DNA from: Oscillospiraceae bacterium
GTDB lineage: Bacteria > Bacillota > Clostridia > Oscillospirales > CAG-272
Direction: 5' to 3'
NCBI GenBank assembly: GCA_015064845.1
Contig: SVRL01000003.1
Location: forward strand, 315 to 64,314
Length of the DNA stretch: 64,000 nt
Shown: positions 6,484 to 62,681 of the stretch, piece by piece
Numbering within the stretch: position 1 is the stretch's first letter
Layout of the letters: each line of letters opens with the position of its first letter
Position numbers and translations under genes: made by a program
The notes under the pieces: model-generated
Seen by the model: the letters and a program-made list of their open reading frames with translations, nothing else
The model's database searches: none
Told to the model about the DNA's origin: nothing

Positions 6484-7787
6484 TGTCGGAAAATCAAATC
6501 ATTCAAAAAACAAATGAATTCGGAGAGACATATTTTTATACCAAACACAAAAGCGGTTTGGATATTTATGTGATTCCCAAAGATTTCGCCACAAATTACG
6601 CCGTTTTCGCAACGAAATACGGCGCGATCGACAATTGCTTCAAAACCGAAGGCGAAGAAAATTTCCATGAGGTTCCGGATGGAATCGCGCATTATCTGGA
6701 GCATAAAATGTTCGAAAACGAGGACGGTGTGGATACCTTTTCCCGTTTTGCGAAATACGGCGCAAGCGCCAACGCATATACTTCTTCGACTATGACGGCA
6801 TATCTGTTTTCCTGCACCAATCATCTGAAGGAAAATCTGGAAATTTTGCTGGATTACGTTTCCAAACCGTATTTCACACCCGAAAACGTGGAAAAAGAGA
6901 GAGGTATTATTGCGCAGGAAATCCGTATGTACGAGGATAATTCCGGAAGCGCCATTTATTACAATCTTTTGCAGGCAATGTACGAAAAACATCAAACCCG
7001 TGTGGACGTTGCGGGAACGGTGGAATCCATTTCCGAAATTACACCGGAACTTCTTTACGACTGTTACAATACCTTTTATAATTTTTCAAACATGACGCTT
7101 TGTGTTTCCGGCAGAACGGATATGCAAACGGTGCTTTCCATCGCGGACCGCGTTTTGCCCGAACGTGAACCGAAAGCCATTTACCGCCATTACCACGAAG
7201 AAAAAACGGAAGTTTTTCAATCCCGTGTGACGGAAGCGTTTGAAGTTTCCCGTCCGATGTTTTTGCTGGGCATCAAAGATATGGATATTTCCGAAAATGC
7301 GGAGATCCGCATGAAAAAGCGTGTGGCAATGAGCATTCTGACGGATATGCTTTTCGGACCGACTTCCGATTTTGCCATTGACGTATACGAAAGCGGTTTG
7401 GTCAACGGTTTTGATGCTTCCTACGACCATTCTTTTGAATGTTCCCGTATTTTCTTGGAAGGCGAAACGGATGACCCCGAAGCCTTTTATCAAAGTTTTC
7501 TTGCATATTTGGAAGAAATTCGTCAAAAAGGTCTTTGTGAAGAAGATTTCAACCGCATTAAGCGCGCAACCTACGCTTCTTACATCAAGGTTTTTGATTC
7601 CACGAAGCTTGCAAGGGAATTTACGCATATGATTCATGATGAATGCGATCCCTTTGCGTTCGGAGAAGCGATTAAAAACGCAACCTTTGATGAAGTAAAA
7701 ACATTGTTTCTTGCATTGTTCAAAGAAGAATTTTATGCCATGAGTATCGTTACTCCTCTGGATGGAAAGGACGATGAAAACGAATGA
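6483..7787 (+). CDS. M16-family zinc peptidase (pitrilysin/insulinase-like), catalytic subunit
   Basis: HYLEH zinc-binding HxxEH motif followed by a downstream E. Translationally coupled to both neighbours. Confidence 0.9.
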   Translation: MSENQIIQKTNEFGETYFYTKHKSGLDIYVIPKDFATNYAVFATKYGAIDNCFKTEGEENFHEVPDGIAHYLEHKMFENEDGVDTFSRFAKYGASANAYTSSTMTAYLFSCTNHLKENLEILLDYVSKPYFTPENVEKERGIIAQEIRMYEDNSGSAIYYNLLQAMYEKHQTRVDVAGTVESISEITPELLYDCYNTFYNFSNMTLCVSGRTDMQTVLSIADRVLPEREPKAIYRHYHEEKTEVFQSRVTEAFEVSRPMFLLGIKDMDISENAEIRMKKRVAMSILTDMLFGPTSDFAIDVYESGLVNGFDASYDHSFECSRIFLEGETDDPEAFYQSFLAYLEEIRQKGLCEEDFNRIKRATYASYIKVFDSTKLAREFTHMIHDECDPFAFGEAIKNATFDEVKTLFLALFKEEFYAMSIVTPLDGKDDENE

Positions 7788-8857
7788 ATAACGAATCGAT
7801 AATCTCTTTTCCCGGACTTGGTATTGAGGAATTTGTATTGGACAGTACAGCGATTTCTTTCAAAATCGGGGATATGCCGATCACGATCATGTGGTATGGA
7901 ATCATCATCTGTATCGGTATTTTTGCGGCGTTTGGATATTTTGCTTACCGCGCAAAGCAACAGCATTTGCTTTTTGACGATGTGTTGGACATTGCGCTTG
8001 TTACCGTTATCACGGCGGTCATCGGTGCAAGACTGTATTTCGTTGTTTTTTACGGCGGATATCTGGAAACAGACGGAACCTTCCTTGAAAACGTATGGGG
8101 AACGTTCTATAATATCATTGCCGTCTGGAACGGCGGACTTGCCATTTACGGCGGTATTATTTTCGGCTTTTTTGCCGTAATCTTTATGTCAAGACGGAAG
8201 AAAGTGTCTTTCTTCAAGCTTGCGGATATGGCGGCGCCTGCCGTTATGCTCGGTCAATTGATCGGAAGATGGGGGAATTTTTGTAACGGCGAAGCGTTCG
8301 GCAGTGAAACCACGCTTCCCTGGAGAATGGGACTTTGCAATTCCCAAACGGGTTATCGCATGATCTACGTGCATCCGACGTTTTTCTATGAATCCTTTTG
8401 GAATCTCATCGGATTTGTTCTGATTAATATCTTCTATCAGAAGAGAAAATATAACGGAGAAATTCTGATCTGGTATTTCTCATGGTACGGACTTGGCAGA
8501 ACGTTCATCGAATTGCTCCGCACGGACTCTTTGATGATCGGAAATATCCGTGTTTCGGCAATGCTTTCTTTCCTTTTGGTTCTCATTTTGCTTCCTGCGG
8601 AAATTTTTTTGCGGAAGCTGCATAAGCAATACACGGAAGAAGGCTTACTGGCACAGGGCGAGATTACGGAGATCAAAACCATTCTTACTATTTTTGTGAA
8701 TAAGAAAAAAGCAGCATCGCAAGTACAAACATCAAATGCAGCCGCAAAAACGGAAGAGGCAGCAGAAAATAACGATGTTACGACATCGGAAAATAAAGAA
8801 AATCATGCGGAAAATTTCGCAGAATCGGAGGAAACAGAAAATGGCACAAATTATTGA
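7784..8857 (+). CDS. lgt: prolipoprotein diacylglyceryl transferase with low-complexity acidic C-terminal tail
   Basis: [13 protein letters not shown] signature in a multi-TM protein. ATGA overlap with the upstream gene. The tail (...[32 protein letters not shown]) overlaps the folD start. Confidence 0.9.
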
Positions 8858-9689
8858 CGGTAAAAAAATTTCGGCGGCGATCCGCGCAGAAATCGCGGAA
8901 GAAGTGAAAGCAATGAAAGCGCAGGGCATTTATCCCGGACTTGCAGTTATTATTGTCGGCGAAAATCCGGCATCTCAGGTTTATGTACGTAATAAAGGAA
9001 AAGCGTGTGAAGAAGTAGGAATCTATTCCGAAATTATTGCAATGCCCGAAGAAACCACGGAAGAAACCCTTCTTGCCAAAATCGATGAATTGAACCGCAG
9101 AAAAGAAATCAGCGGCATTTTGGTACAGCTTCCCCTTCCGAAGCATATCAATGAAGCATCCGTCATTGCGGCAATTTCTCCCGATAAAGACGTGGATGCC
9201 TTCAGCGAGGTCAACGTTGGTAAAATTATGATCGGTAATCACAGATTTCTGCCCTGCACACCTGCCGGAGTAATGGAACTGATTACACGTTCGGGTATTG
9301 AAATTCAAGGAAAAAATGCGGTTGTGATCGGCAGAAGCAATATTGTTGGTAAACCTCAGGCAATGCTCCTTCTTCATGCGAACGCAACGGTTACCATTTG
9401 CCATTCCCGCACGAAAAATCTTGCGGAAATCTGTCGTACGGCTGATATTCTTGTCGTTGCCATCGGTAAAGCAGATTTTGTAACCGTAGATATGGTAAAA
9501 CCCGGCGCGGTTGTTATTGACGTTGGTATGAATCGCAAAGCAAACGGCAAGCTGACGGGCGACGTGGACTATGCAAGCGTTTCCGAAGTTGCGGGTTACA
9601 TTACTCCCGTTCCCGGCGGCGTAGGTCCCATGACCATTACCATGCTTTTGAAAAATACACTGACAGCGGCAAGAGAACAAAACGCATAA
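8841..9689 (+). CDS. folD: bifunctional methylenetetrahydrofolate dehydrogenase/cyclohydrolase
   Basis: ATG 8841 with GGAGG at 8827-8831. [17 protein letters not shown]..., [30 protein letters not shown] and [11 protein letters not shown] are canonical FolD motifs. Confidence 0.92.
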
Positions 9690-9720
9690 ACCCCACTTGA
9701 TCCAAATAAAAAACAGTTGA

Positions 9721-9755
9721 GCCATGGACACCGTTTCGGAATCCATGGCTTTTTT
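9721..9755 (+). terminator. Rho-independent terminator of folD
   Basis: GCCATGGA (9721-9728) / TCCATGGC (9742-9749) followed by a T-run. Confidence 0.8.
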
Positions 9756-9860
9756 ATACTATAGGAAATTACGCAATTTAAACCTCGCCGTTTGCATTGT
9801 TTCGATATAAGAAAAACTTGGATAGGCGAGCAACCTCCAGTGGGTGTTACCCACTTTTTT
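9755..9860 (+). repeat. terminator-associated ~105-nt intergenic element, copy A1
   Basis: TATACTATAGGAAATT...AACCTCGCCGTTTGC...GGATAGGCGAGCAACC...AGTGGGTgttACCCACT plus T-run. Homologous copies at 16818, 27573 (minus strand) and 42829. Confidence 0.8.
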
Positions 9861-9935
9861 AACCTATAGGAAATTGCGATAGACAAGCCACAGATTTCAA
9901 ACAATCCGTTATTCCGGCGGGCGTTGCTCGCTTTT
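9861..9935 (+). repeat. shorter variant element, copy A2 (tandem to A1)
   Basis: Shares the 5' CTATAGGAAATTGCG motif and ends in hairpin GCGGGCgttGCTCGC plus TTTTT. The centre is divergent. Confidence 0.6.
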
Positions 9936-9991
9936 TGATTTCGATAAATATGAATTTTTATGAAACATTCGAAATAAAAATATGAATTTTA

Positions 9992-10021
9992 TTGACATGT
10001 GTATTCAAAATATGCTATAAT
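9992..10021 (+). promoter_or_regulatory. sigma-A-type promoter with extended -10
   Basis: TTGACA (9992-9997), 18-nt spacer, TGcTATAAT (TATAAT at 10016-10021). Located upstream of the CDS at 10144. Confidence 0.6.
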
Positions 10022-10143
10022 AAATATACATTTGTCGCATTTGTAACATTTGAGTATTTGCGGAAAACATGTGAATTTTGGGTTTTCACCATTGGGAATA
10101 CTCATGAAAAATCCATCCAAATTAAAAAGAAAAGAGAACATTT

Positions 10144-11601
10144 ATGGCGAAAATTTTAATTATCGGCGGCGGTGTTGCCGGTTTATCTGCAGGAATTTAT
10201 GCGCAGATGCTCGGACATCGGGCAATTGTGTGTGAAAAGCATTTCATTGCGGGCGGAAATCTTTGCGGCTGGGATCGCGGGGTATATCATATTGATAATT
10301 GCATCCATTGGCTGACGGGCACAAATCCCGCAACGAAAACTTACAACATGTGGGAAGATCTCGGCGCGCTCGGCGGTATTGAGATTTTTCAAGGAGATTC
10401 CCTTTTTACCTGTGAATACGAAGGAAAACGGCTTTCTTTGTATAAAGATATTGAAAAAATGCAAGACGAAATGCTTGCCGTTTCTTTTGAAGATGAAGCA
10501 GAGGTTCGGTCGTTTATTCGTGCAATTCGAATTTTGCAAGGATTTTGCGGAATTGCAGGAAAAGACCACAACGAAAAAATCTCTCCTTTTCGCGCGGCTA
10601 CGGCTATCCCTGTGTTGATGAAATATTATCGTCTGACGACAGGAGAGCTTTCCGAACGCTTTTCACATCCTCTTTTGAAGTTCTTTTTCAAAGCTTTTTG
10701 GGGAAATGATTTCAGTTCTCTTGCGTTGATCTTCGTTTGCGCGCATTTTTGCGGAGAAAACGGAGGGATTCCTGTGGGAAGCTCTTGCGCGATGGCAGAG
10801 CGGATGACCGAACGGTTCCAATCTCTCGGCGGAGAATTGCTTTTGAGGAAAGAAGCGCTTGAAATTCATCATAAAAACGGTAAGGCAACGGAAGTTACGT
10901 TTGCGGACGGAACTTCTTTGCAAGCGGATTATATCATTCTGACTGCCGATCCTGATTCCGTTTTCGGAAAAATGATCGATTTTTCCATGCCGAAGCAGTT
11001 GAAAAAAATGTATGATAATCCGAGATACCGGCGTTTTTCAAGTTATCAATGTGCAATTTCCTGTACGCTTTCCGAATTGCCGTTTGAAGGCGATATTATT
11101 TTTGAAATTCCGAAAAAATACCACTCTTTGCTTTGTACCGACAGACTGATTGTTCGTGAATTTTCTCATGAAAAAACATTTGCTCCCGAGGGGGAAAATA
11201 TTTTGCAAACGATGGTCTTTGTTTTTGAAGAAGATGCTGAGAATTTTATCCGACTTCGGGCAAATGACAGAGAAGCTTACCGTCAAAAGAAAAAAGAAAT
11301 GGAAGAAGTTCTTTTGAAATTGCTTGAAGACCAATTTCCGCAAATGAAAGGCACTTTGCGTTGCATTGATCTGTGGACTCCTGCAACGTACCATCGTTTC
11401 ACGGGCAGTAAAATCGGTTCATTTATGAGCTTTGCCCTTCCTTCCAAAGCGTTGCCGCTGCGTGTCGGCAACCGCGTGAACGGTCTTTCCAACGTCATTT
11501 TGGCAACGCAATGGCAACAGGCGCCCGGAGGATTGCCGATTGCGGCTGAGGTTGGAAAAATCGCAGCAGAAACCATTGATAAAGAAGAACACAAAAAATA
11601 A
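10144..11601 (+). CDS. NAD(P)/FAD-dependent oxidoreductase (phytoene-desaturase-like family)
   Basis: N-terminal dinucleotide-binding motif ILIIGGGVAGLSAG in a 485-aa protein. Confidence 0.85.
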   Translation: MAKILIIGGGVAGLSAGIYAQMLGHRAIVCEKHFIAGGNLCGWDRGVYHIDNCIHWLTGTNPATKTYNMWEDLGALGGIEIFQGDSLFTCEYEGKRLSLYKDIEKMQDEMLAVSFEDEAEVRSFIRAIRILQGFCGIAGKDHNEKISPFRAATAIPVLMKYYRLTTGELSERFSHPLLKFFFKAFWGNDFSSLALIFVCAHFCGENGGIPVGSSCAMAERMTERFQSLGGELLLRKEALEIHHKNGKATEVTFADGTSLQADYIILTADPDSVFGKMIDFSMPKQLKKMYDNPRYRRFSSYQCAISCTLSELPFEGDIIFEIPKKYHSLLCTDRLIVREFSHEKTFAPEGENILQTMVFVFEEDAENFIRLRANDREAYRQKKKEMEEVLLKLLEDQFPQMKGTLRCIDLWTPATYHRFTGSKIGSFMSFALPSKALPLRVGNRVNGLSNVILATQWQQAPGGLPIAAEVGKIAAETIDKEEHKK

Positions 11602-11623
11602 AGACATTGGAAAGGTAAATATT

Positions 11624-12460
11624 ATGAGAAAATTTAAAATTGTTTCAGATTCTGCTTCCGATCTTACGTCATTGAAAAACGTAGATTTTGCATATGCCCC
11701 CATGAAGCTGATTGCCGATGGAAAAGAATTTATTGATGATGATTCGCTGGACGTGAAAGAAAGCGTGGATTTCTTTTATGCATACAAAGGAAAATCCCGT
11801 TCCTCCTGTCCCAATACGGGGGAATGGTTGGAGGCTTTTGGGGATGCGGATGACATTTTTTGCGTAACCATCACAAGCGGACTTTCGGGGAGCTATAATA
11901 CCGCATGTGCCGCAAAGAAGATTTATGAAGATGAAAATGAAGGTAAGCGTGTTTTTGTGGTGGATTCTCTGTCTGCAGGTCCGGAAATCACGTTGATTAT
12001 TGAAAAATTGGAAGAATATATTTCGGAAGGCATGGAATATGAAGAGATCTGTCGAAAGATTATGGAGTACCGAAAGAAAACAGGTTTGATTTTTATGCTC
12101 AAATCCTTGAAAAATTTCGCCAATAACGGCAGAGTATCTCCCGCTTTGGCAAGAATTGTGGAATTCCTCGGTATTTGTATCGTCGGCAAAGCCAGTGAGG
12201 AAGGTACGTTGGAGCCCACCCATAAATGTCGAGGAGAAGGAAAAGCATTGAGTACTCTGGTTTCCGAATTGAAGGCGAGTGGTTTGTTCAGCGGTAAAGT
12301 CAGCATTGCGCATTGCGAAAATGAACTTGCAGCGATCAGACTGAAAACGATGTTGCAGGCAAGTTTTCAAAATGCAAAAATAGAAATTCATAAGCTTCGC
12401 GGTCTTTGCAGCTTTTATGCGGAAAAAGGCGGCGTGCTGATTGGATTTGAAAAATTTTGA
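11624..12460 (+). CDS. DegV-family fatty-acid-binding protein
   Basis: ATG 11624 within track ORF 11540..12460. MRKFKIVSDSASDL start and overall DegV pattern. Confidence 0.9.
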   Translation: MRKFKIVSDSASDLTSLKNVDFAYAPMKLIADGKEFIDDDSLDVKESVDFFYAYKGKSRSSCPNTGEWLEAFGDADDIFCVTITSGLSGSYNTACAAKKIYEDENEGKRVFVVDSLSAGPEITLIIEKLEEYISEGMEYEEICRKIMEYRKKTGLIFMLKSLKNFANNGRVSPALARIVEFLGICIVGKASEEGTLEPTHKCRGEGKALSTLVSELKASGLFSGKVSIAHCENELAAIRLKTMLQASFQNAKIEIHKLRGLCSFYAEKGGVLIGFEKF

Positions 12461-21605: not shown

Positions 21606-24050
21606 ATGAAAAAGATTTTTATAATGCTGGCGGCGCTTCTTCTTACGCTTACAGCGCTTCTGGTCGCCGGTTGTAATAATAACAATTCGGATACCGATGA
21701 AGATAGCGGGTCCAAGCAGATTTATTACAGCAATGACTCTCTTTATGCGTATACATTGAACGATAAAAACGAAGCAACTCTTGTTGGTTATAATGGTAAA
21801 GTTGCAAATCTTGTGCTTAACCGTATTGACGGCAGACAAAAAATCGTTGCCATCGCGAACGATGTATTTACCGGAAATACCTATCTGAAGAGCGTGGAAA
21901 TTGTTTCTCCGATCAAAACTATCGGAGACAATGCTTTTGCTTCCTGCACGTCTTTGCAGTCGGTTACGTTCCGTTCCGGCTCGGTTCTGGAATCCATTGG
22001 AGCAGGTGCTTTCTCCGGTTGTAAAGTTTTGAACACATTTACCATTCCTTCTACTGTTAAGACCATCGGCGATAACGCTTTTTTGAATTGCTATAAGGCA
22101 AGCATTGATTTTTCCGAAGCAACTTCCTTGGAAACCATCGGAGATTATGCATTTTCGTCCTGCGGCATGAATCTGAATTCCACAACGAGCGTGATGATTC
22201 CCGCAAGCTTGAAAGAAATCGGTCAAGGTGCTTTTTACGGTTGCGTTCAGATCCTTTCTTTTGAAGTTGCGGAAGGGAATACTGTCTTTTCAGCGGAAGA
22301 CGGCATTCTTTATAATGCAGACCGTACGGTTCTCGTCCTCTTCCCACCCGCAGCCGGAAAATCCGAAACGTATACGATCCCTGCTCATGTTCGTACGATT
22401 GCGGGAAGTGCGTTTGCAGGTGTTGGTTTGAAGAACATTATCTTGAATGAAGGTTTGGAAGAAATCGGGGGCAATGCTTTCTATAAGGCTTATAAATTGG
22501 AAAGCATTCAGATTCCTGCTACCGTTAAAACCATTGGCAGTTATGCATTCATGGAATGCTCCGCATTGAAAACCGCAAATATTCCCGATAACACCGCGCT
22601 TGGTTTTTATATTTTCCGTAATTGCACGTCTCTTACGTCTGTAACCATGCCTTCTTATATAAAAGAGATTCCGGAAGGTCTTTTTGACTCCTGCTCCGCG
22701 TTGGAAGCAATCACGCTTCCCGAGGGTGTTGAAACGATTGGAATACTTGCGTTCAACTATTGTAAAACGCTCAAGGAAATCAAACTCCCCTCTTCTGTGA
22801 AAACCGTTAAATCCTATGCGTTCCGTAACTGCACAGGACTGACGGAGATGGATCTCTCTTCCGTTACATCGCTCGGTTCTTTTGCTTTTCAGTATTGCGG
22901 CGCATTGAAAAGCGCAGACATCCGTAACGTCACGGAGATTGCTCCTTATGTGTTCAGCGAATGCACGGTTTTGGAATACGTAAACATTCCCAACTCGATT
23001 ACATCGATTGGAAACTATGCATTTTTCGCTTGCGACCATTTGGCTTCTTTTGTAATTCCGGAGACCGTAACGGATTTGGGCGATTATGCATTTGCAAAAT
23101 GCACGGCGCTTTCCGAAATTAAAATTCCCGCTTCGGTTACAAAAATCGGTCAAGGCGTATTTTACGGTTCCGGCATTGTTTCCGCTATCATTGAAGCACC
23201 TATCAAGGCAATTCCCGCTTCTTTCTTTGATTCTTGCACCAAGCTTTCCACCGTGATTTTACCTGAAACGGTTGAGGTGATTTCCATCGGTGCTTTTGCG
23301 GGATGTTCTCAGCTGAAAGAAATTCCTCTTGTCCGTCCGATCAAACATGTGGCTCCCGGTGCATTCACAAACTGCATCAGCTTGAAAAATATTATCATCG
23401 GTACGGAAGATAAGGAAATCGGCGCAGGTACGTTCTACGGTTGTGAATCGTTGGAAGAAATCGTTATTCCCGAAGGCATTATTTCCATTGAATCCTCCGC
23501 TTTTGCCAATTGTGTTTACTTGACATCCGTGACATTCCCTTCTACGTTGGAATATATCGCTTCTCAGGCATTTGCTTCTTGCCAAAAGCTCCCCCGCGTT
23601 TCTTTGCCCGAATCGCTTGACATGATCGGCAACAATGCTTTTGCGAGTTGCACCAAACTGACGAAGATCGATATTCCAAGCAGTGTGGTTTATATCGGCA
23701 GAAATGCTTTTAACGGTACAAACTGGTTGAAAGCGCAGTCAAATGAAACCTTTATTGTAGCAGGCGACGGTATTTTGGTTCAATATAACGGAAACGACGC
23801 CAACATTGTCATTCCCGATACGGTAAAACGCATTCCCGCCTACCGTTTTGCCTCTCTTTCGACTGAACCGAAATCTTTTACGATTCCGTCTTCCGTTCAG
23901 TATATTTCCATGGATGCTTTTTCTAAAAGGGTGGAAACTTCCGAAAGTTATTATTATGAAAAACGCTACATTACCATCATCGGACGTAAAGGTACGTATG
24001 CGGAAACTTTTGCAAATCACGAATACTACACGTTTGAAGCCATCAAATAA
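21606..24050 (+). CDS. BspA-type leucine-rich-repeat surface lipoprotein
   Basis: Lipobox LVAGC. Roughly 30 tandem ~23-aa units of the form IPxSVxxIGxxAFxxCxxLxxI. Confidence 0.88.
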   Translation: MKKIFIMLAALLLTLTALLVAGCNNNNSDTDEDSGSKQIYYSNDSLYAYTLNDKNEATLVGYNGKVANLVLNRIDGRQKIVAIANDVFTGNTYLKSVEIVSPIKTIGDNAFASCTSLQSVTFRSGSVLESIGAGAFSGCKVLNTFTIPSTVKTIGDNAFLNCYKASIDFSEATSLETIGDYAFSSCGMNLNSTTSVMIPASLKEIGQGAFYGCVQILSFEVAEGNTVFSAEDGILYNADRTVLVLFPPAAGKSETYTIPAHVRTIAGSAFAGVGLKNIILNEGLEEIGGNAFYKAYKLESIQIPATVKTIGSYAFMECSALKTANIPDNTALGFYIFRNCTSLTSVTMPSYIKEIPEGLFDSCSALEAITLPEGVETIGILAFNYCKTLKEIKLPSSVKTVKSYAFRNCTGLTEMDLSSVTSLGSFAFQYCGALKSADIRNVTEIAPYVFSECTVLEYVNIPNSITSIGNYAFFACDHLASFVIPETVTDLGDYAFAKCTALSEIKIPASVTKIGQGVFYGSGIVSAIIEAPIKAIPASFFDSCTKLSTVILPETVEVISIGAFAGCSQLKEIPLVRPIKHVAPGAFTNCISLKNIIIGTEDKEIGAGTFYGCESLEEIVIPEGIISIESSAFANCVYLTSVTFPSTLEYIASQAFASCQKLPRVSLPESLDMIGNNAFASCTKLTKIDIPSSVVYIGRNAFNGTNWLKAQSNETFIVAGDGILVQYNGNDANIVIPDTVKRIPAYRFASLSTEPKSFTIPSSVQYISMDAFSKRVETSESYYYEKRYITIIGRKGTYAETFANHEYYTFEAIK

Positions 24051-54771: not shown

Positions 54772-55229
54772 AAAAGATTGCCTTGATTCCGGGGACTTTT
54801 GATCCCGTTACGCTCGGACATTTGGATCTTGTGAAGTTTTCATCTGAGATCTTCGATGAGGTTGTCGTTTGCATTTGCGTGAATCCCGATAAACAGCATC
54901 TTTTTAACGAAGCGGAGAGAAAAGCTATGCTGGAGAAAGCGGTTGCTTCTTATCCGAACGTGTGCGTGGATATTCATCACGGATGGACTGCCGATTACGC
55001 GCTTGCCATTGGCGCGCAATGTATCGTGCGCGGCATCCGCAATGAAAAGGATGCCCAATATGAATTGGAAATGGCGGATTACAATTTCAAGACCAAAGGC
55101 GTGCGGACGATGTTGATTCCTGCACGTGCGGAAATCGCACAAATCAGTTCCACTGCTGTCAGGGAAAAACTTGCCAAAGGCGAAAGCGTAGAAAATCTTA
55201 TTCCGAGCGAAGTGAAGCTTGGAAAGTAA
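54768..55229 (+). CDS. coaD: pantetheine-phosphate adenylyltransferase
   Basis: PGTFDPVTLGHLDL motif. ATGA overlap with rsmD. Confidence 0.93.
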   Translation: MKKIALIPGTFDPVTLGHLDLVKFSSEIFDEVVVCICVNPDKQHLFNEAERKAMLEKAVASYPNVCVDIHHGWTADYALAIGAQCIVRGIRNEKDAQYELEMADYNFKTKGVRTMLIPARAEIAQISSTAVREKLAKGESVENLIPSEVKLGK

Positions 55230-55294
55230 CAGCATAACAAAAATCCCCTCTGTGCAAACGCAGATATTGAGCGTTGCATAAAGGGGATTGTTTT

Positions 55295-56266
55295 TCACGG
55301 TATGTAGAGGTCTTCCTTGAAGGCTTCCCATTTTTCGGGATGGTTGACGAAATAGATGGGACAATATTTGTGCCAGGTAACGCCGCTGGAATTGGTGCGG
55401 GGATAATCGTAATGCCGTTTTACATTTTTTTCCGAGAGATCAAATTCGGCGCAGAGCCAGGATACGAGCTTGACGAGAGATTCATATGTGGCATCGGTAA
55501 ATTTTCCCGTGGAATCGGGATGGCAGCATTCAATGGAGATGGTGGTATAATTTCCTTCGGTCGTACCGATTGCCCACGCAACTTCGTTGAGGGGCATACA
55601 TTGCAAAATCGAACCGTCGAGGTCAATGATAAAATGCGCGCTGGTATTAGGTTTGTTGTTTTCAAAGTTTTTCCAGTTTTGAAGCGCGGTGGTTCCGGGA
55701 TTGGCAACATAATGCACGACAATATTTTTTACGCTCCAGAGTTTATATCCGGGACGAGAATTTTTGTGAATACTAAGATATTTTTTTGTAATCAGCTCCG
55801 CCATTTTTTCATCGGTAATATCTTCTGCCGTGATACCGTCAGGCTGATCGGCGGGAGGCTGAGTGTTCTGCGTCGTTTGAGAGGATTCCGTTGTCTGAGA
55901 TGGTTTCGTTGTTTGCGAGGTTGATTCGCTTTCGGTTGTTTTTTGAGTGGAGACGGAATCGGAGGGAATGAAAGTGGGAATGGTTGCCGGCAGATATTTT
56001 GTGGATTCGGATGTTTGCGATGAGGTTTGCTCCGAGGACTGTGTTTGTGAATGTAAAGACTCAATACTCGAGTGGTCGGAGGGGTGCGTTGCAAGCGAAC
56101 CCGTTGTCGGGTCGGCCGCGTCCGTAGTGTCCGAAGATTCGTTTTTCAGATTCAATACTCCTGCGTAATGTAGGGCGAGAACTGCGATGACAATAATAAT
56201 AAAAATAAAGATAAAGATCAAAAGACTGGAAATGAATTTTTCTTGATCGGAATAATTTGCTTTCAC
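55295..56266 (-). CDS. membrane-anchored N-acetylmuramoyl-L-alanine amidase (Amidase_2/PGRP type)
   Basis: N-terminal TM, a Ser/Thr/Gln-rich linker, and a C-terminal IVVHYVANPG...SAHFIID...ISIECCH domain. Confidence 0.85.
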   Translation of the reverse strand: MKANYSDQEKFISSLLIFIFIFIIIVIAVLALHYAGVLNLKNESSDTTDAADPTTGSLATHPSDHSSIESLHSQTQSSEQTSSQTSESTKYLPATIPTFIPSDSVSTQKTTESESTSQTTKPSQTTESSQTTQNTQPPADQPDGITAEDITDEKMAELITKKYLSIHKNSRPGYKLWSVKNIVVHYVANPGTTALQNWKNFENNKPNTSAHFIIDLDGSILQCMPLNEVAWAIGTTEGNYTTISIECCHPDSTGKFTDATYESLVKLVSWLCAEFDLSEKNVKRHYDYPRTNSSGVTWHKYCPIYFVNHPEKWEAFKEDLYIP

Positions 56267-56420
56267 GGGGGTTTCTCCTTGCTATTTTGTATGTGAGATC
56301 AAATTTTGCTTTCATTATTGTATCATATTTGGTTATATCTGTCAAGACGGTGAATATTTTTATTTTGGAATGCCGAATGGAAAATTAAGGCTTGATTTTA
56401 GTCATTTTTTTCATAAAGAA

Positions 56421-56449
56421 TTGCAATAAATGAATTTTTATGATATAAT
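56421..56449 (+). promoter_or_regulatory. near-consensus sigma-A promoter of the TerB-N operon
   Basis: TTGCAA (56421-26), 17-nt spacer, TATAAT (56444-49), about 30 nt upstream of ATG 56480. Confidence 0.6.
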
Positions 56450-56479
56450 AAATAAAATAAGCAATTATGGAGGGACGTT

Positions 56480-58153
56480 ATGCCGAACAAAGAAAACATC
56501 GATGCGTTTTGGGATATTGAAGATCTGATCCCACAGCGTCCGAAGAAAACCGTCGCAAGCCCCGTGCATACGGATATTTGCGCGGAGGAGATCGTTTTGA
56601 CTTCCGAAAAAGAGCAAGGCGGAGAACGAATTCCCTCACGTACGGAAAATCCGATCAAAAAAGAAGAAAAATTGAGGGTAATCAGAGAATATTCCCCGAA
56701 GCACAGTCTGATTCAAAGCGTGCGTATTTTGCCGTGGCCGACATCTTTTGAATTTTATACGAAATTCCGAAAGGACGCCATTCGGTATTTTGATCTGACG
56801 CATGAGCCTTGTGAATACGTATATTTCTTTTCCTATATGCCGCAGTATGAGCAAATGACCGTTTCGCAGATGTCGTATTATCTTTATTGGCGTTCTGAAG
56901 CAAGGAAAGGAAATTATTTGAAAACGGATATCAATTATCTGTTTCTGTATGTGGATGAAATTATCAATCTTCCCGAAAAGATTTTACCGAGGGAAGGCGC
57001 GTTGATCTTATCCCGACTTTGGAAAACGTATCGCAGAGAATTTCTTTATCTGGATAAATATTTCGGGGAATGGCTTTGCGATTACTGCCTGATTCACGAT
57101 GTTTCTCCCGATTGGGATGTTTTACGGGATTTTGCAGGGGATATTGCGGGAAAGATTTCTCTGCCTGAATTTTATATGCGGGACGGATTGCTTTCCTGGG
57201 GATTGATTTCCGCTGTTTCTTCATATGATTATAAAAAAAGCAAATATTACGAACAATATGCCGAAGAATATGACAGACATATTCCGAAAGCGGTGGAAGC
57301 GGCTGTAAACGGGGTAATTATGAAAAATCCCGAGGCGTTTGGTATTACCGCAGTGAAAACGATCAGAGACAGTTATGCGGGGGCGGTTGCTTCCAACAAA
57401 GCGAAATTTAAGATCGAGATCTCACGTTACGCCATTCGAAAAAGCGCTTCCAAAGGAGAGCAGGATTTAAAACAGGTTTTCGGCAATCTGATCAAGTTGG
57501 CGGAAAATCGGATTCGGATGTATTTCGGAATCAAATCCCGCTTTTCTCCTACAGGGGTGGATTCTCGCATGAAAGAAGAGATTTCATCATATTTTCATGC
57601 GGTATATCCTGAACAGACCCGTAAAAAGCAAAACAAAAACGAGGAAGAAGAAGCTTATATGGCGCTTTATGAGCCGAAGCAGACGGGAAAAGCGGATATT
57701 GAACGCGCACTTGCCATTGAAGAACAGGCGTGGGAAACGGCGGAATTGCTTTCTGCGGAAGAGGATGAAGAGATGGCTTTTGAGCCGATCTTTGAAGAAC
57801 AGAAAATTACCTTTTCTCTTGCTGAAGAAAAAACGGTTGAAGAAGAAACGGCAACACAAAATCCGTTATCTTCCGAATTTTCTTTTTCGTTTGAAAATCC
57901 GAATGATATGAATGGAGATTTTGCGTTTATTCAAACGGTTTTTTCGGAAGAACAAAGAGAAGCGCTTCGCGCGGCGGCAGAAGGCAGATTTTTGGAATAT
58001 TGCCGAATGCTCGGTAAGATGGCAGACCATGTGCGCGGAGAGCTCAATGAAATTGCGATGGAAGCCATTGACGATATGATTCTGGAAGAAGATTTTTCTC
58101 CTGTTTCGGACTATTTGGATGAAATGAAAGCGATGTTATATACGGATAAATGA
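56480..58153 (+). CDS. TerB-N plus TerB-C domain protein
   Basis: YFFSYMPQYEQMTVSQMSYYLYWRSEARKGNYLKTDINYLFLYVDEIINL (TerB-N hallmark). Acidic linker. C-terminal LNEIAMEAIDDMILEEDFSPVSDYLDEM (TerB-C-like). GGAGGGA RBS. Confidence 0.85.
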   Translation: MPNKENIDAFWDIEDLIPQRPKKTVASPVHTDICAEEIVLTSEKEQGGERIPSRTENPIKKEEKLRVIREYSPKHSLIQSVRILPWPTSFEFYTKFRKDAIRYFDLTHEPCEYVYFFSYMPQYEQMTVSQMSYYLYWRSEARKGNYLKTDINYLFLYVDEIINLPEKILPREGALILSRLWKTYRREFLYLDKYFGEWLCDYCLIHDVSPDWDVLRDFAGDIAGKISLPEFYMRDGLLSWGLISAVSSYDYKKSKYYEQYAEEYDRHIPKAVEAAVNGVIMKNPEAFGITAVKTIRDSYAGAVASNKAKFKIEISRYAIRKSASKGEQDLKQVFGNLIKLAENRIRMYFGIKSRFSPTGVDSRMKEEISSYFHAVYPEQTRKKQNKNEEEEAYMALYEPKQTGKADIERALAIEEQAWETAELLSAEEDEEMAFEPIFEEQKITFSLAEEKTVEEETATQNPLSSEFSFSFENPNDMNGDFAFIQTVFSEEQREALRAAAEGRFLEYCRMLGKMADHVRGELNEIAMEAIDDMILEEDFSPVSDYLDEMKAMLYTDK

Positions 58154-58215
58154 GATTGGATTCTTGCCTTGCAACCGCAAAAGCGGGATGGAGAGCAAGC
58201 GAAAGGAAAAACAAT

Positions 58216-59562
58216 ATGGATGAAATGAATTTGATTAAAATTCCGAAAAGGGTTTTGAATGCTTTGCTGTCTTCCATGGCGGCGGGCGTTGTACCGCGAG
58301 CGGGCGCAAAGTATATTGCGATTGGAAGAACGGCGGAGATCACGGCGATTTGCAAGGATTTGGAAAACGTAAGCGAGGGCGGCTCGGCAACCCGTTTTCT
58401 GATCGGTAAATACGGAAGCGGTAAAAGCTTTTTGATTCAGCTTATGCGCGGTTACGCGGTGGAACGCGGTTTTGTTTGTGCGGATGCGGATCTTTCTCCC
58501 GAACGCAGACTTTCTTCTTCGGGCGGCGGCGGTCTTGCCACTTACCGCGAGCTTGTAAAAAATCTTTCCACGAAATCTTCGCCCGACGGCGGCGCGCTTT
58601 CACAGATGATTTCCAAATGGCTTTCCGATATTCAATATGCCGTAACACAGGACGGAATCTATCCCGAATCGCCTGTTTTCGAAAAAGAGGTTTCCGCGAG
58701 AATCTATGCGGTTCTGCGTGAGATTGAAACGGGTGTCGGCGCATTTGATTTTGCGCGTGTGATCGACAGCTATTACCGCGCGTGGAAGGAAGGCGACGAG
58801 CGCCGTCAGAGCGATTGTCTGCGTTGGCTTCGCGGTGAATTTACGACGAAAACGGAAGCAAGAGCGGCACTTTCCGTTTCGGGTATCATCAACGACGATA
58901 ACTGGTATGATTATATCAAATTGCTCGCTGCGTTTTCGAGAAAGATCGGTTACGGCGGTCTGGTTATTTTCATTGATGAATGTGTCAATCTCTATAAGAT
59001 TCCCAACCGTGTTTCAAGAGAAAACAATTATGAAAAGATTCTTTCGATATTCAATGATACTTTGCAGGGCAAAGCGGAAGGCTTGGAGATTATTTTTGCG
59101 GGTACGCCGCAATTTCTGGAAGATACGAGAAGAGGGCTTTTCAGCTATGAAGCGCTCCGTTCCCGCTTGGTTGATAATATGTTCGGCAGAGAAGCGGCGG
59201 CGGTTTCCGCAAGCGGTCAGATGTTCGGACCCATTATGCGTCTTGCCCGTCTTTCCGATGATGAGCTTCTTGCATTGCTTGCCCGTGTAACCGTTCTTTT
59301 CAAGCGCGGATACGGAAACGTTGACGTAAAACCTGAAGAAATGAGAGATTTTCTTTATTATATGCTTGACCGCGCAGGCGCGGATACGATGATTACACCG
59401 AGAGAAATTATCCGCGCTTATCTGACGGCGTTGGGTATGGTTTTGCAAAGCGGCGGGAAGATGCGTTTGCTTGATATCTATCGGAAAGAAAGTGCTTTTG
59501 CCGAGGAACCGAAAGAGAAAAGCAAACCGACTGATTTTGATCCCGAGGACATTGAATTTTAA
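58216..59562 (+). CDS. DUF2791/BrxD-like P-loop ATPase
   Basis: AAGVVPRAGAKYIAIGRTAEI...RFLIGKYGSGKSF (Walker A). ATG 58216 has a GAAAGGA RBS. An alternative ATG at 58150 overlaps the upstream stop. Confidence 0.85.
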   Translation: MDEMNLIKIPKRVLNALLSSMAAGVVPRAGAKYIAIGRTAEITAICKDLENVSEGGSATRFLIGKYGSGKSFLIQLMRGYAVERGFVCADADLSPERRLSSSGGGGLATYRELVKNLSTKSSPDGGALSQMISKWLSDIQYAVTQDGIYPESPVFEKEVSARIYAVLREIETGVGAFDFARVIDSYYRAWKEGDERRQSDCLRWLRGEFTTKTEARAALSVSGIINDDNWYDYIKLLAAFSRKIGYGGLVIFIDECVNLYKIPNRVSRENNYEKILSIFNDTLQGKAEGLEIIFAGTPQFLEDTRRGLFSYEALRSRLVDNMFGREAAAVSASGQMFGPIMRLARLSDDELLALLARVTVLFKRGYGNVDVKPEEMRDFLYYMLDRAGADTMITPREIIRAYLTALGMVLQSGGKMRLLDIYRKESAFAEEPKEKSKPTDFDPEDIEF

Positions 59563-59573
59563 GGAGGACAAGG

Positions 59574-60890
59574 ATGAAAAGACAAGAGCTTGATATGGAA
59601 GCTTGGCAAGAAAGGGAAGCGCAAAAAGAGCGCAGAAGACAAAAGAAGCGCGCGCTGAGATTGGCTCGTATTGCAAAATGGGACCCTGTCCGTTTCCGTT
59701 ACGGACGTATTGTCCGCCATCTGATTTTCTATTTTGTTTTTATTATGGCTGTGAAGGCAACCGCAAACCCCGTTTCGGTCGATGATCCCGATTTTATGGT
59801 CCGATGCGGCGCATCGGCACTCGCTATGCTGATTTCATTTATTTTTCTGGACGGTGTTTTTGTTCTTTACGATCCGACCGCGCGCAGACGTTTTTGCCAT
59901 GAACCGCCGAAAGAAACGGGCATTTTTTCCGAATGGAAATTTGCGCTTTGTTCCTATGAATTTTTGTCTAAAATGGTAACGCTTGCAATTCTTCCCTCGT
60001 TTTGGAGTACGTCATACTTTCTTTATCCGCTTGCCATATTTTTTAACCGAATCGAATTTTCGCGCTGGGAGATATGGGGACTTTATCTTTTGACGGTATT
60101 GCCGATCATGGCAGTCATTGACCTTTTTATGCGTGTGCGGACGAGAAGATATTGGCGTGACTTGGATGAGGAAGAAGCAATTGATAAACGGTTTGACTTT
60201 TTGGCTATGATCTGGCTTTGTGTTTTGATTATTTTCGGTGTCGGATTTGTCGGATTTTACTTTACGGCAACGGGGCTGTTGATTGGAATTTTGTTTATGC
60301 CGGGCGTTTGGCTGACGATTGTCAGTGTCATTTTGGCACTCTTTTTACTGCACTATATCCGCGCATTCTGGATTCGGGCGCGGTTTATCAAAAATTTGAA
60401 AAAAGTCTGTAAAGAGGAAGGCGCGGAGCTTTTACGCATCGCACATCCTTACCGTTCGATTTTCATCAAAAAAAGGAATGCGTATGAATTTACGATCAAG
60501 GTGAACGGAAAAACCTATGCTTGCAAAATGATCAGCGCAATTTTCAAGAGTGTGCCCATGATTTTCTGCGATAAAGAATCCGGCTATTTCAAATTTGGTA
60601 TACAGGTTCGAAAAAATGACCTTTTTACTTTCAGATCTTGGTTTACACACGGATTTGAAGCGCCTGAGGCAGATCAGAAAATTCTGATCGTGAATCCTGC
60701 GCCTCATAGGATGAAAGCCATTCAGCTTTATACGGCGTTTTCTTCGGAAAATTCTGCTTTCGTAACGGAGGGAAAATACGAACGAATGCTGGACAACGCA
60801 TCTTCGGTATACGATGCCACGGTTTTTTCGGGAAACGGTTTTCTCAACGCTGTGAAAAGGAACTGCCTTGATAAAAGAGACGACGGTTGA
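59574..60890 (+). CDS. polytopic membrane protein with basic N-terminus and ~170-aa C-terminal soluble domain, unknown function
   Basis: AAGGAGGA RBS, 11 nt after the upstream stop. About 6-7 hydrophobic helices between residues ~47 and ~265. No motif recognised in the tail. Confidence 0.8.
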   Translation: MKRQELDMEAWQEREAQKERRRQKKRALRLARIAKWDPVRFRYGRIVRHLIFYFVFIMAVKATANPVSVDDPDFMVRCGASALAMLISFIFLDGVFVLYDPTARRRFCHEPPKETGIFSEWKFALCSYEFLSKMVTLAILPSFWSTSYFLYPLAIFFNRIEFSRWEIWGLYLLTVLPIMAVIDLFMRVRTRRYWRDLDEEEAIDKRFDFLAMIWLCVLIIFGVGFVGFYFTATGLLIGILFMPGVWLTIVSVILALFLLHYIRAFWIRARFIKNLKKVCKEEGAELLRIAHPYRSIFIKKRNAYEFTIKVNGKTYACKMISAIFKSVPMIFCDKESGYFKFGIQVRKNDLFTFRSWFTHGFEAPEADQKILIVNPAPHRMKAIQLYTAFSSENSAFVTEGKYERMLDNASSVYDATVFSGNGFLNAVKRNCLDKRDDG

Positions 60891-60894
60891 GTTT

Positions 60895-60935
60895 TTAGCC
60901 GAAAGCGAATTTCGCTTTCGGCTAAAATATTTTTG
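60895..60935 (+). terminator. probable terminator (15-bp perfect palindrome)
   Basis: TTAGCCGAAAGCGAA (60895-60909) / TTCGCTTTCGGCTAA (60911-60925). The T-run comes after a 5-nt gap. Confidence 0.6.
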
Positions 60936-61025
60936 AAAATTTTGAAACCTTTTCGTTTTTTTTACGATATAGATGTATGAAAGGTTCATTTGAACTTTTT
61001 GAAATGCAAAGAAACGGAGGGGAAA

Positions 61026-61580
61026 ATGGAAGACAAAGAGATTGTGGCGCTTTTTTGGAAGCGGGATGAAAATGCAGTTGAAGAAACGGCAAAAAAATAC
61101 GGAAATTACTGTTATAGTATAGCATATCAGATTCTTGAAAATCACGAAGATTCCGAAGAAAGTGTCAACGATACGTATATCGATGCATGGAATTCCATTC
61201 CTCCGCACAAACCATCGGTGCTTTCGGCGTTTCTGGGAAAAATCACGCGTCGTATTGCCATTGACCGATGGAGAAACCGCAGAGCGGAAAAACGCGGAGG
61301 AGGAGAGCCTTTGCTCGTTTTGGATGAATTACGGGAATGCATTGCAACCGATAGTGATGTTGAAACGAATCTGGAGCGGAAAGTTTTGGTTCAGACGGTG
61401 AATGCTTTTTTGGGAACGTTATCCGCTACGGAAAGAAAAATGTTTGTTTGCCGATATTTTTATATGGATTCCGTGGAATCCGTATGCAAACAATTCGGAT
61501 TTTCGGAAAGCAAGGTAAAATCCATGCTTTTCCGAACGAGAGAAAAATTGCGTATTTATTTGCAGAAGGAGGGATTTTAA
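61026..61580 (+). CDS. sigma-70-family (ECF-type) RNA polymerase sigma factor
   Basis: Region 2 (HEDSEESVNDTYIDAWNSIPP) and region 4 (...FGFSESKVKSMLFRTREKLR). GGAGGGG RBS. Confidence 0.88.
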   Translation: MEDKEIVALFWKRDENAVEETAKKYGNYCYSIAYQILENHEDSEESVNDTYIDAWNSIPPHKPSVLSAFLGKITRRIAIDRWRNRRAEKRGGGEPLLVLDELRECIATDSDVETNLERKVLVQTVNAFLGTLSATERKMFVCRYFYMDSVESVCKQFGFSESKVKSMLFRTREKLRIYLQKEGF

Positions 61581-62134
61581 TGAAAGTGGATGAGTTTTTG
61601 GATGCCATTGGAGAAATTGACGATTTTTATTTGAAAGAAGCAAAAGAAAAACCAAACCGAAGAAAAATCACATGGGTGGGAATCGGTTCTCTTGCCGCTT
61701 GTTTCCTTCTCGTTCTTTTTCTGCCCTACGGATTTTTGCACAGAATTGCTTTGAATGATGCGGAAGCCAATTATGCGCCGAAAGATTACACTCAATTTTT
61801 GGTTTATTATGTGGATGGAGAGAACCTTTCTCATTTTACCTATGAAATTCACGGCGGTCATGAGGAAATGTTTTTCGCTTGGAAGAATCAAAACGGAATC
61901 AGCGAAGACGTTTTACTGAAAGATATTGATTTGCAAGTGAAAATTCAAGAAGACTGTGGTAATCCGACCGATTCTCCCGTCATGGAATATATTCTCCGTG
62001 TTGAAATATCTTCTTCTTTTGCGGATTATATGGAAAAAGATAATGCGGCGCTTTTGTTGGAATCCTTGAAAAAAACGGTTGCTTCCTATACGGGTGTGAA
62101 AGTTTCGGATATCAAATGGATTCTCGTTGAATAA
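61580..62134 (+). CDS. putative anti-sigma factor / membrane-anchored partner
   Basis: TAATG overlap with the sigma gene. A short cytoplasmic N-terminus, one TM (WVGIGSLAACFLLVLFLP) and an extracytoplasmic domain. Confidence 0.62.
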   Translation: MKVDEFLDAIGEIDDFYLKEAKEKPNRRKITWVGIGSLAACFLLVLFLPYGFLHRIALNDAEANYAPKDYTQFLVYYVDGENLSHFTYEIHGGHEEMFFAWKNQNGISEDVLLKDIDLQVKIQEDCGNPTDSPVMEYILRVEISSSFADYMEKDNAALLLESLKKTVASYTGVKVSDIKWILVE

Positions 62135-62156
62135 CGATCGGAAAGGAGAATCTTTT

Positions 62157-62525
62157 ATGAAAAAGAAAATATGTATTACCGTTTCGGTGTGTGTTCTGGT
62201 TTTCGGATTGATTTTTCTCGGCGTGATGGCATCCCTGAACTACGGTTATAGCGAGGGGCGTGTTCTGATTGCCGATAGCGGCGCTTATTTTATTATTTTG
62301 AATGACCATTCTCCGATCCGCATGACTGACCGTTCTTTGAGCGGCGGTTTATTCGGCGATTTACAAACGGGAGACCGCATTTGTGTGGTTCACGGCAGCA
62401 TTCAGGAATCTTATCCCGGAAATACTGCGGTGTATTATCTCCGCCGTCTTGAAAAAGGAACCGTGGAGGACGTTTTTCCCGATGTCATTCATACGTTGAC
62501 GGAACTTGGTTGGTTTGAAAAATGA
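62157..62525 (+). CDS. hypothetical membrane-anchored/secreted small protein
   Basis: ATG 62157 with RBS GAAAGGAGA. N-terminal signal or anchor (ICITVSVCVLVFGLIFLGVMA). Confidence 0.62.
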   Translation: MKKKICITVSVCVLVFGLIFLGVMASLNYGYSEGRVLIADSGAYFIILNDHSPIRMTDRSLSGGLFGDLQTGDRICVVHGSIQESYPGNTAVYYLRRLEKGTVEDVFPDVIHTLTELGWFEK

Positions 62526-62546
62526 TATAGAAAAAACGTCTGATTT

Positions 62547-62578
62547 CGGCAGAGATATTGTTTTCTCTGCCGATTTTT
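62547..62578 (+). terminator. Rho-independent terminator
   Basis: CGGCAGAGA (62547-55) / TCTCTGCCG (62564-72) followed by aTTTTT. Confidence 0.8.
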
Positions 62579-62681
62579 GCTATAATAAAGTTGGTAAGAA
62601 CGAGACGGAAAGAGAGAATAGTGTCTCAAAAGCCCTCTTCGTCAACCTTTGGTTGTCACCTCTTCCTGAGTAAGGGGTTTT
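62579..62681 (+). ncRNA. candidate small RNA or leader (unclassified)
   Basis: Extended -10 TGcTATAAT (TATAAT at 62581-86). Hairpins GAGAC (62602-06) / GTCTC (62623-27) and CAACC (62643-47) / GGTTG (62651-55). Terminator-like CCTCTT (62659-64) / AAGGGG (62672-77) plus TTTT. No ORF. Confidence 0.25.

Follow-up and report, generated by a model that had tools for sequence, protein, structure and literature searches.

Does a Shango-like operon in which no helicase is encoded, and in which a gene for a membrane protein occupies the third position, represent a form of the system with a new effector? The question is raised by a locus on the plus strand of a 64-kilobase (kb) stretch of DNA from an Oscillospiraceae bacterium (64,000 nucleotides (nt) of contig SVRL01000003.1, hereafter the window), where a sngA-like gene (gene 1, 56480-58153, 557 amino acids (aa)) is followed by a sngB-like gene (gene 2, 58216-59562, 448 aa) and by a gene encoding a polytopic membrane protein (gene 3, 59574-60890, 438 aa). 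Canonical Shango protects against phage and comprises SngA (a TerB-N/TerB-C protein), SngB (an ATPase) and SngC (a DEAD/DEAH helicase) (Millman et al. 2022, 10.1101/2022.05.11.491447; Johnson et al. 2023, PMC10250203). A first-pass annotation of the window had taken the membrane protein for an effector which replaces the helicase. The comparative analysis points elsewhere. With a probability of roughly 0.6, the locus is a Shango-derived sngAB module from which sngC was lost once and in which the pair has been retained, gene 3 being an independent neighbour.

Identity of genes 1 and 2 and the search for a helicase

Gene 1 matches Pfam TerB_N at 47.2 bits (2.9e-12; cut-off 25), and the PADLOC SngA profile aligns with residues 71-553 of its product at 3.2e-39, in agreement with the TerB-N domain recognised in the first-pass annotation. 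As to the TerB-C-like tail proposed at the same time, the match to Pfam TerB_C is weak and, at 22.1 bits, lies just under the cut-off of 26.3. The overall architecture (TerB-N, an acidic linker and TerB-C) is collinear with that of SngA from helicase-bearing Firmicute loci. The reading of gene 2 as a P-loop ATPase of the DUF2791/BrxD type is well founded, as its product matches Pfam BrxC_BrxD at 4e-144 and its closest PADLOC family is SngB (6.6e-158, compared with 1.4e-44 for BrxD); the NCBIfam BREX_BrxD model gives 153 bits, under its cut-off of 350. The Walker A (GxYGSGK) and Walker B (D254-E255) motifs are invariant in an alignment which includes canonical SngB, and the protein motifs quoted in the earlier reading, YFFSYMPQYEQMTVSQMSYYLYWRSEARKGNYL and RFLIGKYGSGKSF, were both found in the translations. 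An alternative ATG at 58150 would extend the sngB product to 470 aa. Judged by these profiles, the products of genes 1 and 2 belong to the SngA and SngB types and not to BREX.

A near-identical NCBI protein to the window SngB (MBE6664795.1) is annotated as ‘biotin carboxylase’, as is one homologue on a Klebsiella plasmid. On a DUF2791 ATPase this label looks like a propagated misannotation. The other two proteins of the series MBE6664794-96 are annotated as ‘hypothetical’.

The reference for the third gene is provided by four annotated loci on plasmids of Paenibacillus, Klebsiella, Phaeobacter and Salmonella, in which a TerB_N protein, an ATPase and a DEAD/DEAH helicase of ~730 aa are encoded consecutively. 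This gene order agrees with the published description of Shango, and the four loci are flanked by insertion sequence (IS), toxin-antitoxin, Abi or Lit genes. Their SngC proteins were used as seeds in a tblastn search of the 64-kb window and of as much as 10 kb of flanking DNA in relatives, the comparative material throughout consisting of metagenome-assembled genomes or metagenome contigs. The search can be regarded as sensitive, since the four seeds recover one another at ~31% identity with E ~1e-110. No SngC-like helicase was detected by it in the window or in the related loci L002-L004 and L025-L032. A PADLOC scan of 58 main open reading frames (ORFs) of the window returned SngA and SngB as the sole strong matches and no SngC. 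No helicase was found by Pfam among all window ORFs of at least 520 aa, the matches being to leucine-rich repeat (LRR) proteins, rhamnosidase, glycoside hydrolase family 2 (GH2), MurJ, Wzy and UvrC, and the remaining ORFs having no match. The earlier statement that the operon neither contains nor adjoins a helicase gene is correct for the window, and a dedicated nuclease gene is likewise absent in or beside it.

Evolution and retention of the sngAB pair

Homologues of SngB are abundant, numbering more than 8000 at E <1e-30. The best 120 of these are 60-94% identical and stem from Clostridia, and a single SngB cluster comprises 129 member sequences located on many long contigs. In further sngAB neighbourhoods (six examined; loci numbered L025-L032) the TerB_N and BrxC_BrxD genes adjoin each other, the stop codon of the first often overlapping the start codon of the second, and no helicase is present in the neighbourhoods examined. 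The gene 3' of sngB varies among these loci and is unrelated to gene 3: it encodes a lacZ-type GH2 protein in L025-L029 and L031, two groups of loci with rbfA-nrnA-truB next to the pair, it is alaS in L030, and in L032 it is a convergent LRR gene.

When metagenomes were scanned with a broad alignment of SngB, 80 loci were obtained, with SngB 45-64% identical to that of the window, and in nearly all of those with enough downstream DNA sngC is located directly 3' of sngB. The nameable downstream genes in the few helicase-less exceptions among the 80 loci are housekeeping genes (PGA_cap, Tex, LplA). No alternative effector was found among the nameable genes beside these sporadic helicase-less pairs, with the limits that the downstream ORF of L116 is without a Pfam match and that the scan did not cover L051 and L067. 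A neighbour-joining tree of SngB unites the window with L002-L004, L025-L029, L031 and L032 in one clade, which is nested among helicase-bearing Firmicute loci; L030 is helicase-less yet falls outside this clade. The simplest reading of this topology is that the linked sngC was lost once and that sngAB was then retained for a long time.

The first-pass annotation had held that relatives with a helicase at the same spot would imply the simple decay of a standard Shango locus. Such relatives do exist, as the genes for Firmicute SngB homologues of 45-63% identity nearly always directly precede sngC, but simple decay is the wrong conclusion because sngA and sngB are under purifying selection, as judged from their substitution ratios. 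The one informative pair in this respect is L002 versus L003, saturation at synonymous sites having made the other comparisons unusable, and the ratio of non-synonymous to synonymous substitution rates (dN/dS) is here 0.067 in sngB, 0.20 in sngA, 0.26 in gene 3 and 0.084 in the downstream extracytoplasmic function (ECF) sigma factor gene. Moreover, intact sngA and sngB ORFs were found in 12 of the 12 loci of the helicase-less clade, in which SngB is 61-85% identical to that of the window.

A housekeeping context was also considered as a possible mark of the helicase-less clade, and was rejected. The helicase-bearing Clostridial relatives likewise reside among housekeeping genes, and genomic context therefore fails to separate the two forms.

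Glycoside hydrolase genes recur beside or inside the Firmicute sngAB(C) loci, in at least three arrangements: the lacZ-type GH2 gene after sngB already noted (L025-L029, L031), a GH2 gene between sngA and sngB (L004/L117, 14994-17318) and a GH39-like gene between sngB and sngC (L042, 8462-9790). This recurrence may reflect the abundance of glycoside hydrolases in gut Clostridia. In the helicase-bearing Clostridial locus L047 a gene for an AddB-type PD-(D/E)xK helicase-nuclease subunit (7030-10272) starts at the stop codon of sngC, and in L033, from Paenibacillus, sngC is followed by a gene (10552-11937) whose product of 461 aa gives a weak, GdpP-like GGDEF match. Both could be accessory genes or chance neighbours.

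Gene 3 and the competing explanations

The layout of the operon is as the first-pass annotation had described it. The three ORFs lie on the same strand and are separated by gaps of 62 nt (sngA-sngB) and 11 nt (sngB-gene 3). The near-consensus promoter in front of sngA (56421-56449, plus strand) was recovered as TTGCAA-17-TATAAT with a TG extension, matching the sigma-70 consensus at 10 of 12 positions and obtaining the top plus-strand promoter-like score in the region scanned for promoter- and terminator-like sites (55200-62600). The palindrome at the end of the operon, previously given as 15 bp at 60895-60925, is part of an intrinsic-terminator-like hairpin (60893-60927, plus strand) with a 16-bp stem, a 3-nt loop and a T-run, which is the strongest terminator-like site of that region. 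The same scan detected no terminator-like site between sngB and gene 3, and gene 3 has a GGAGG ribosome-binding site 6 nt 5' of its ATG. Since the three genes share the promoter-like site and the end hairpin, with no terminator between sngB and gene 3, they look like one transcription unit, and in the sublineage of the window gene 3 is probably co-transcribed with sngAB.

Physical coupling of this kind is not a general property of the gene-3 family. The locus set surveyed consisted of 24 fetched loci, three contig look-ups (L117 being on the same contig as L004) and the window, and comprises 26 distinct loci. The sngA-sngB pair lies directly 5' of gene 3 in four of these (the window, L002, L003 and L119), all of which share a block of amidase, sngA, sngB, gene 3, ECF sigma factor, anti-sigma factor and a small conserved ORF; in L001 the contig edge falls at gene 3. 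The block of amidase, sngA, (GH2) and sngB is inverted in L004/L117, and genes for a phosphoribosyltransferase and a permease are situated between it and gene 3, which there follows uvrA and ftsH; gene 3 and sngAB both persist. Near the remaining 20 of 26 loci (L118, with 42% identity, and 19 more distant ones) sngAB was not found, although some of these are uninformative, with upstream flanks of <1 to 10 kb. The neighbourhood survey called for by the first-pass annotation hence places gene-3 homologues usually apart from sngAB pairs. The proposal that the membrane protein replaces the helicase as effector is contradicted by this distribution, by the presence of sngC in relatives and by the variable identity of the gene downstream of sngB. 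On the synteny available gene 3 is not a conserved partner of sngAB, and it is most economically regarded as a passenger gene of the envelope/membrane class.

The protein itself was correctly described as a membrane protein, with 6-7 transmembrane helices and a soluble tail of ~170 aa devoid of recognisable motifs; we find ~6 transmembrane helices, a C-terminal domain of ~150 aa and no family match. Gene 3 has no counterpart in Pfam, NCBIfam, PADLOC or PHROGs, the last of which gave no match either for sngA, sngB or the two products encoded downstream. A word-indexed search retrieved 66 homologues from Clostridia metagenomes, none of them informatively named. A search of 1.84 billion representatives with a profile built on the C-terminal domain extended the family to 504 representatives (clusters at 50% identity), 341 of which at E <= 1e-10. 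The architecture is uniform across the family and proper to it, in favour of its independence of sngAB: nearly all members either measure 380-460 aa and carry the domain C-terminally or are shorter, at 240-265 aa. A Pfam scan of 56 diverse members gave no curated family, only sporadic weak matches in the transmembrane region. The AlphaFold model of the full-length protein (pLDDT 80) has ~6 transmembrane helices and a beta-rich C-terminal domain, and the domain modelled on its own reached a pLDDT of 83.6 and a pTM of 0.78. The positive-inside rule predicts a cytoplasmic location for both the N-terminus and the C-terminal domain. Fold searches of PDB and BFVD with the full-length and domain models gave no match at E <0.01 (best 0.02-0.15, TM <= ~0.3), nor did the family profile find anything at E <= 1 among PDB sequences.

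A conserved D-x-K, together with weak fold matches of the full-length model to RecU/PrfA and SPARDA (probability <= 0.21), had prompted the idea of a membrane-tethered nuclease. The idea of a PD-(D/E)xK nuclease was dropped because the domain-only model has no match in PDB or BFVD (best E 0.02-0.05) and because the domain is almost all beta, unlike PD-(D/E)xK folds. In one protein of 675 aa (P0063) a gene-3-like stretch (20% of the query, 53% identity) is joined to glycosyl-hydrolase-3 and pfkB domains; as the contig measures 2.8 kb, this fusion is probably an artefact of assembly or gene calling.

Other neighbours recur around the more distant gene-3 homologues. Genes for a MerR/DUF1836 regulator, for an SPFH/Band_7 protein and for a protein of 167 aa stand in front of the homologues in L009, L011, L014 and L019, and those in L013 and L015 precede a polysaccharide deacetylase gene. 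The short forms of ~265 aa (L020-L024) follow genes for giant proteins of ~1800 aa which cluster with the LRR/BspA type. Neighbours of this kind hint at an envelope-related role of the gene-3 family.

Downstream of the operon, an ECF sigma factor is encoded at 61026-61580 (plus strand; Pfam Sigma70_r2, Sigma70_ECF and Sigma70_r4), a neighbour outside the sngAB module. It is followed by a gene for a putative anti-sigma factor (61577-62134, plus strand), which overlaps the ECF stop codon and is syntenic in L001-L003 and L119. Of the sigma/anti-sigma pair in the first-pass annotation the sigma factor is thus confirmed, but the product of 61577-62134 has no profile match, and its putative assignment derives from its position and its single transmembrane segment. 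An ECF-type promoter-like motif, TGAAAC-N16-CGAT (60943-60968, plus strand), lies upstream of the sigma factor gene. It is the single match in the window and by itself not rarer than expected by chance; a conserved form, TG(C/A)AAC(C/T)TTTT-N11-12-CGA(C/T), is present between gene 3 and the ECF gene in the window, L001, L002, L003 and L119. The motif is probably an autoregulated promoter of the ECF operon, and the possession of its own conserved motif suggests that this operon is a separate transcription unit. No ECF-type motif was found upstream of sngA or gene 3, and membership of sngAB-gene 3 in the regulon of the neighbouring sigma factor was rejected, the conserved motif occurring only before the ECF gene. 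An ECF sigma gene also follows directly after the distant gene-3 homologues in L012, L016, L017 and L018.

Taken together, our preferred explanation is a single, probable loss of the linked DEAD/DEAH helicase gene sngC, in the common ancestor of an Oscillospiraceae-type clade of Clostridia from gut and rumen, after which sngAB would have been passed on in the company of ordinary chromosomal genes and maintained by purifying selection. Gene 3 would be an independent membrane protein gene which came to be placed 11 nt 3' of sngB in one sublineage. SngA and SngB presumably still act jointly, as an ATP-driven sensor or scaffold pair, because the two genes are kept side by side, the stop codon of one often overlapping the start codon of the other, and because the Walker motifs are intact; the output of SngC would then be either dispensable here or provided by a helicase encoded elsewhere. 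The pair would most likely serve in the surveillance of phage or stress. The literature searched offers no mechanism for canonical Shango, and reviews go no further than to suggest membrane surveillance through TerB. Several points weigh against this explanation. The SngB tree was computed by neighbour joining from fragments of metagenomes and carries no support values, and the apparent absence of sngC applies to the window and to flanks of at most 10 kb. Gene 3 starts 11 nt after sngB not only in the window but also in L003 and L119, and because this spacing is conserved, sngAB and gene 3 may be functionally linked locally. The strong ribosome-binding site in the window and the lack of an intervening terminator make co-expression of sngB and gene 3 likely in the sublineage, and the adjacency of the two genes outlasts the divergence of gene 3 down to ~44% identity.

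These points bear directly on the view that SngA, SngB and gene 3 form a functional three-gene variant of Shango, in which a membrane effector replaces the helicase in abortive infection or envelope surveillance. The 11-nt gap, the strong ribosome-binding site and the common promoter and terminator all fit such a unit, as does the occurrence of the same arrangement in L002, L003 and L119. Furthermore, TerB-family proteins are thought to be membrane-associated, Dionysus, a TerB system, uses membrane proteins (10.1101/2025.09.30.679545), and the C-terminal domain of gene 3, if cytoplasmic as predicted, could touch SngAB. We nevertheless hold the variant to be very unlikely. The adjacency does not extend beyond one synteny block, where the amidase and ECF genes on either side are just as conserved, and it is broken in L004/L117, where both parts persist; L118 and the 19 more distant gene-3 loci are without sngAB in the available flanks, the other helicase-less sngAB loci all have unrelated downstream genes, and gene 3 matches neither a PADLOC model nor a pore-forming or effector fold. 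It is also rather improbable that SngAB constitutes a self-sufficient helicase-free core, domesticated by a whole gut and rumen clade of Clostridia as a chromosomal, vertically inherited surveillance or stress module, to which the co-transcribed gene 3 was recruited as a local output in the sublineage of the window and for which SngC would be an exchangeable effector, not its centre.

A split system is a tenable if doubtful alternative: an SngC-type helicase encoded at an unlinked site could provide the canonical function in trans. The strong conservation of sngAB and the unchanged architecture of SngA fit an unchanged partner requirement, and the search for sngC was confined to the window and its relatives' flanks; yet sngC is tightly linked in all four annotated loci and in nearly all metagenomic ones, often with overlapping codons, and no SngC-like sequence occurs in the window or the available flanks of the helicase-less clade. 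Gene 3 might instead belong with the downstream sigma/anti-sigma genes in an envelope-stress module which is only transcriptionally appended to sngAB. The ECF gene follows gene 3 directly in two lineages (the window clade, and L012, L016, L017 and L018) at ~30% gene-3 identity, and further neighbours of gene 3 are envelope-related (SPFH/Band_7, polysaccharide deacetylase, amidase). We consider this fairly unlikely: of the 26 distinct gene-3 loci only 9 show an adjacent ECF gene, gene 3 is set apart from the ECF gene by a strong terminator and by a separate, conserved promoter motif of the ECF type, and neither gene 3 nor sngA has this motif upstream. Finally, the loss of the helicase, a defining component, could be taken to mean that sngAB is an inert, decaying remnant of a Shango locus. 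This is hardly credible in view of the intact ORFs throughout the clade at 61-85% SngB identity, the low dN/dS values of sngB and sngA, the invariant Walker motifs and an SngB cluster with 129 members on many long contigs.

On the other side of the operon, the divergent neighbour of sngA encodes a membrane-anchored N-acetylmuramoyl-L-alanine amidase (55295-56266, minus strand; Pfam Amidase_2, 2.5e-26), which adjoins sngA also in L003, L119 and L004. The 213-nt intergenic region between the two genes contains two strong, divergent promoter-like sites, the second of which (56345-56317, minus strand; TTGACA-17-TACAAT, 11 of 12 positions with TG) faces the amidase gene. The wider flanks of the operon include uvrC, rsmD and coaD in addition to the amidase and ECF sigma genes. 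At 21606-24050 the window also encodes an 814-aa BspA-type leucine-rich-repeat protein (LRR_5, 9e-156), and related LRR proteins recur near sngAB in L032 and near gene-3 homologues in L002, L003, L119 and L020-L024.

Comparison with known systems

With Shango the locus shares full-length matches to the SngA and SngB profiles, the order and tight coupling of sngA and sngB, and an SngB which has 49% identity with its counterpart in a complete Paenibacillus locus. It differs in that sngC is absent from the operon, the 64-kb window and the related loci, the loss being fixed in the whole clade, and in that it is embedded among uvrC, rsmD, coaD and an amidase gene instead of the IS, toxin-antitoxin and Abi genes observed at the plasmid loci. 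A setting in a defence island or mobile element, which is usual for Shango without being a strict requirement, was not found, and PADLOC gave no other strong defence match in the window. Full membership in three-gene Shango accordingly fails, because sngC is absent, although SngA and SngB both qualify.

The relation to BREX is confined to the Pfam family BrxC_BrxD, which gene 2 shares with BrxD. The NCBIfam BREX_BrxD score of 153 bits against a cut-off of 350, and a PADLOC BrxD match far below that to SngB, set the protein apart, and PADLOC reported no other BREX family besides BrxD among the 58 window ORFs. As to the tellurite-resistance Ter cluster, which has TerB proper (PF05099) with TerC/TerD/TerZ neighbours, gene 1 matched TerB_N/TerB_C and not PF05099, and no Ter family was detected among the window ORFs scanned with Pfam. 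Anantharaman, Iyer and Aravind reportedly described in 2012 a Ter-associated neighbourhood of TerB-N/TerB-C and DUF2791 proteins with a helicase as the third gene; the protein pairing is the same as in the window, which lacks the helicase. Dionysus, reported from Proteobacteria, combines a TerB-like protein with a membrane protein and with a pore-forming toxin (10.1101/2025.09.30.679545). It resembles the window locus in that a TerB-family protein is encoded together with membrane proteins, but it has no DUF2791 ATPase and possesses a pore-forming-toxin effector, whereas gene 3 has neither a PADLOC model nor a fold match and is not conserved beside sngAB outside one block.

The literature searched, a limited library, yielded no account of an sngAB clade that lacks the helicase. 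A clade that keeps sngAB without a linked helicase amounts to a natural experiment, and suggests either an activity of SngA-SngB of their own or an unlinked partner. It also supplies a defined set of sequences for separating the roles of the TerB-N protein, the ATPase and the helicase. DefenseFinder and PADLOC are understood to require all three genes for a Shango call and would for this reason miss a two-gene form that is widespread in gut and rumen Clostridia, which makes the locus useful for defence-system annotation as well as for the dissection of Shango. The membrane-effector idea, which arose from adjacency in one lineage, serves as a warning against inferring effector swaps from a single genome. 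The locus descends from Shango and presumably works like it, and is neither BREX nor a Ter cluster nor Dionysus-like.

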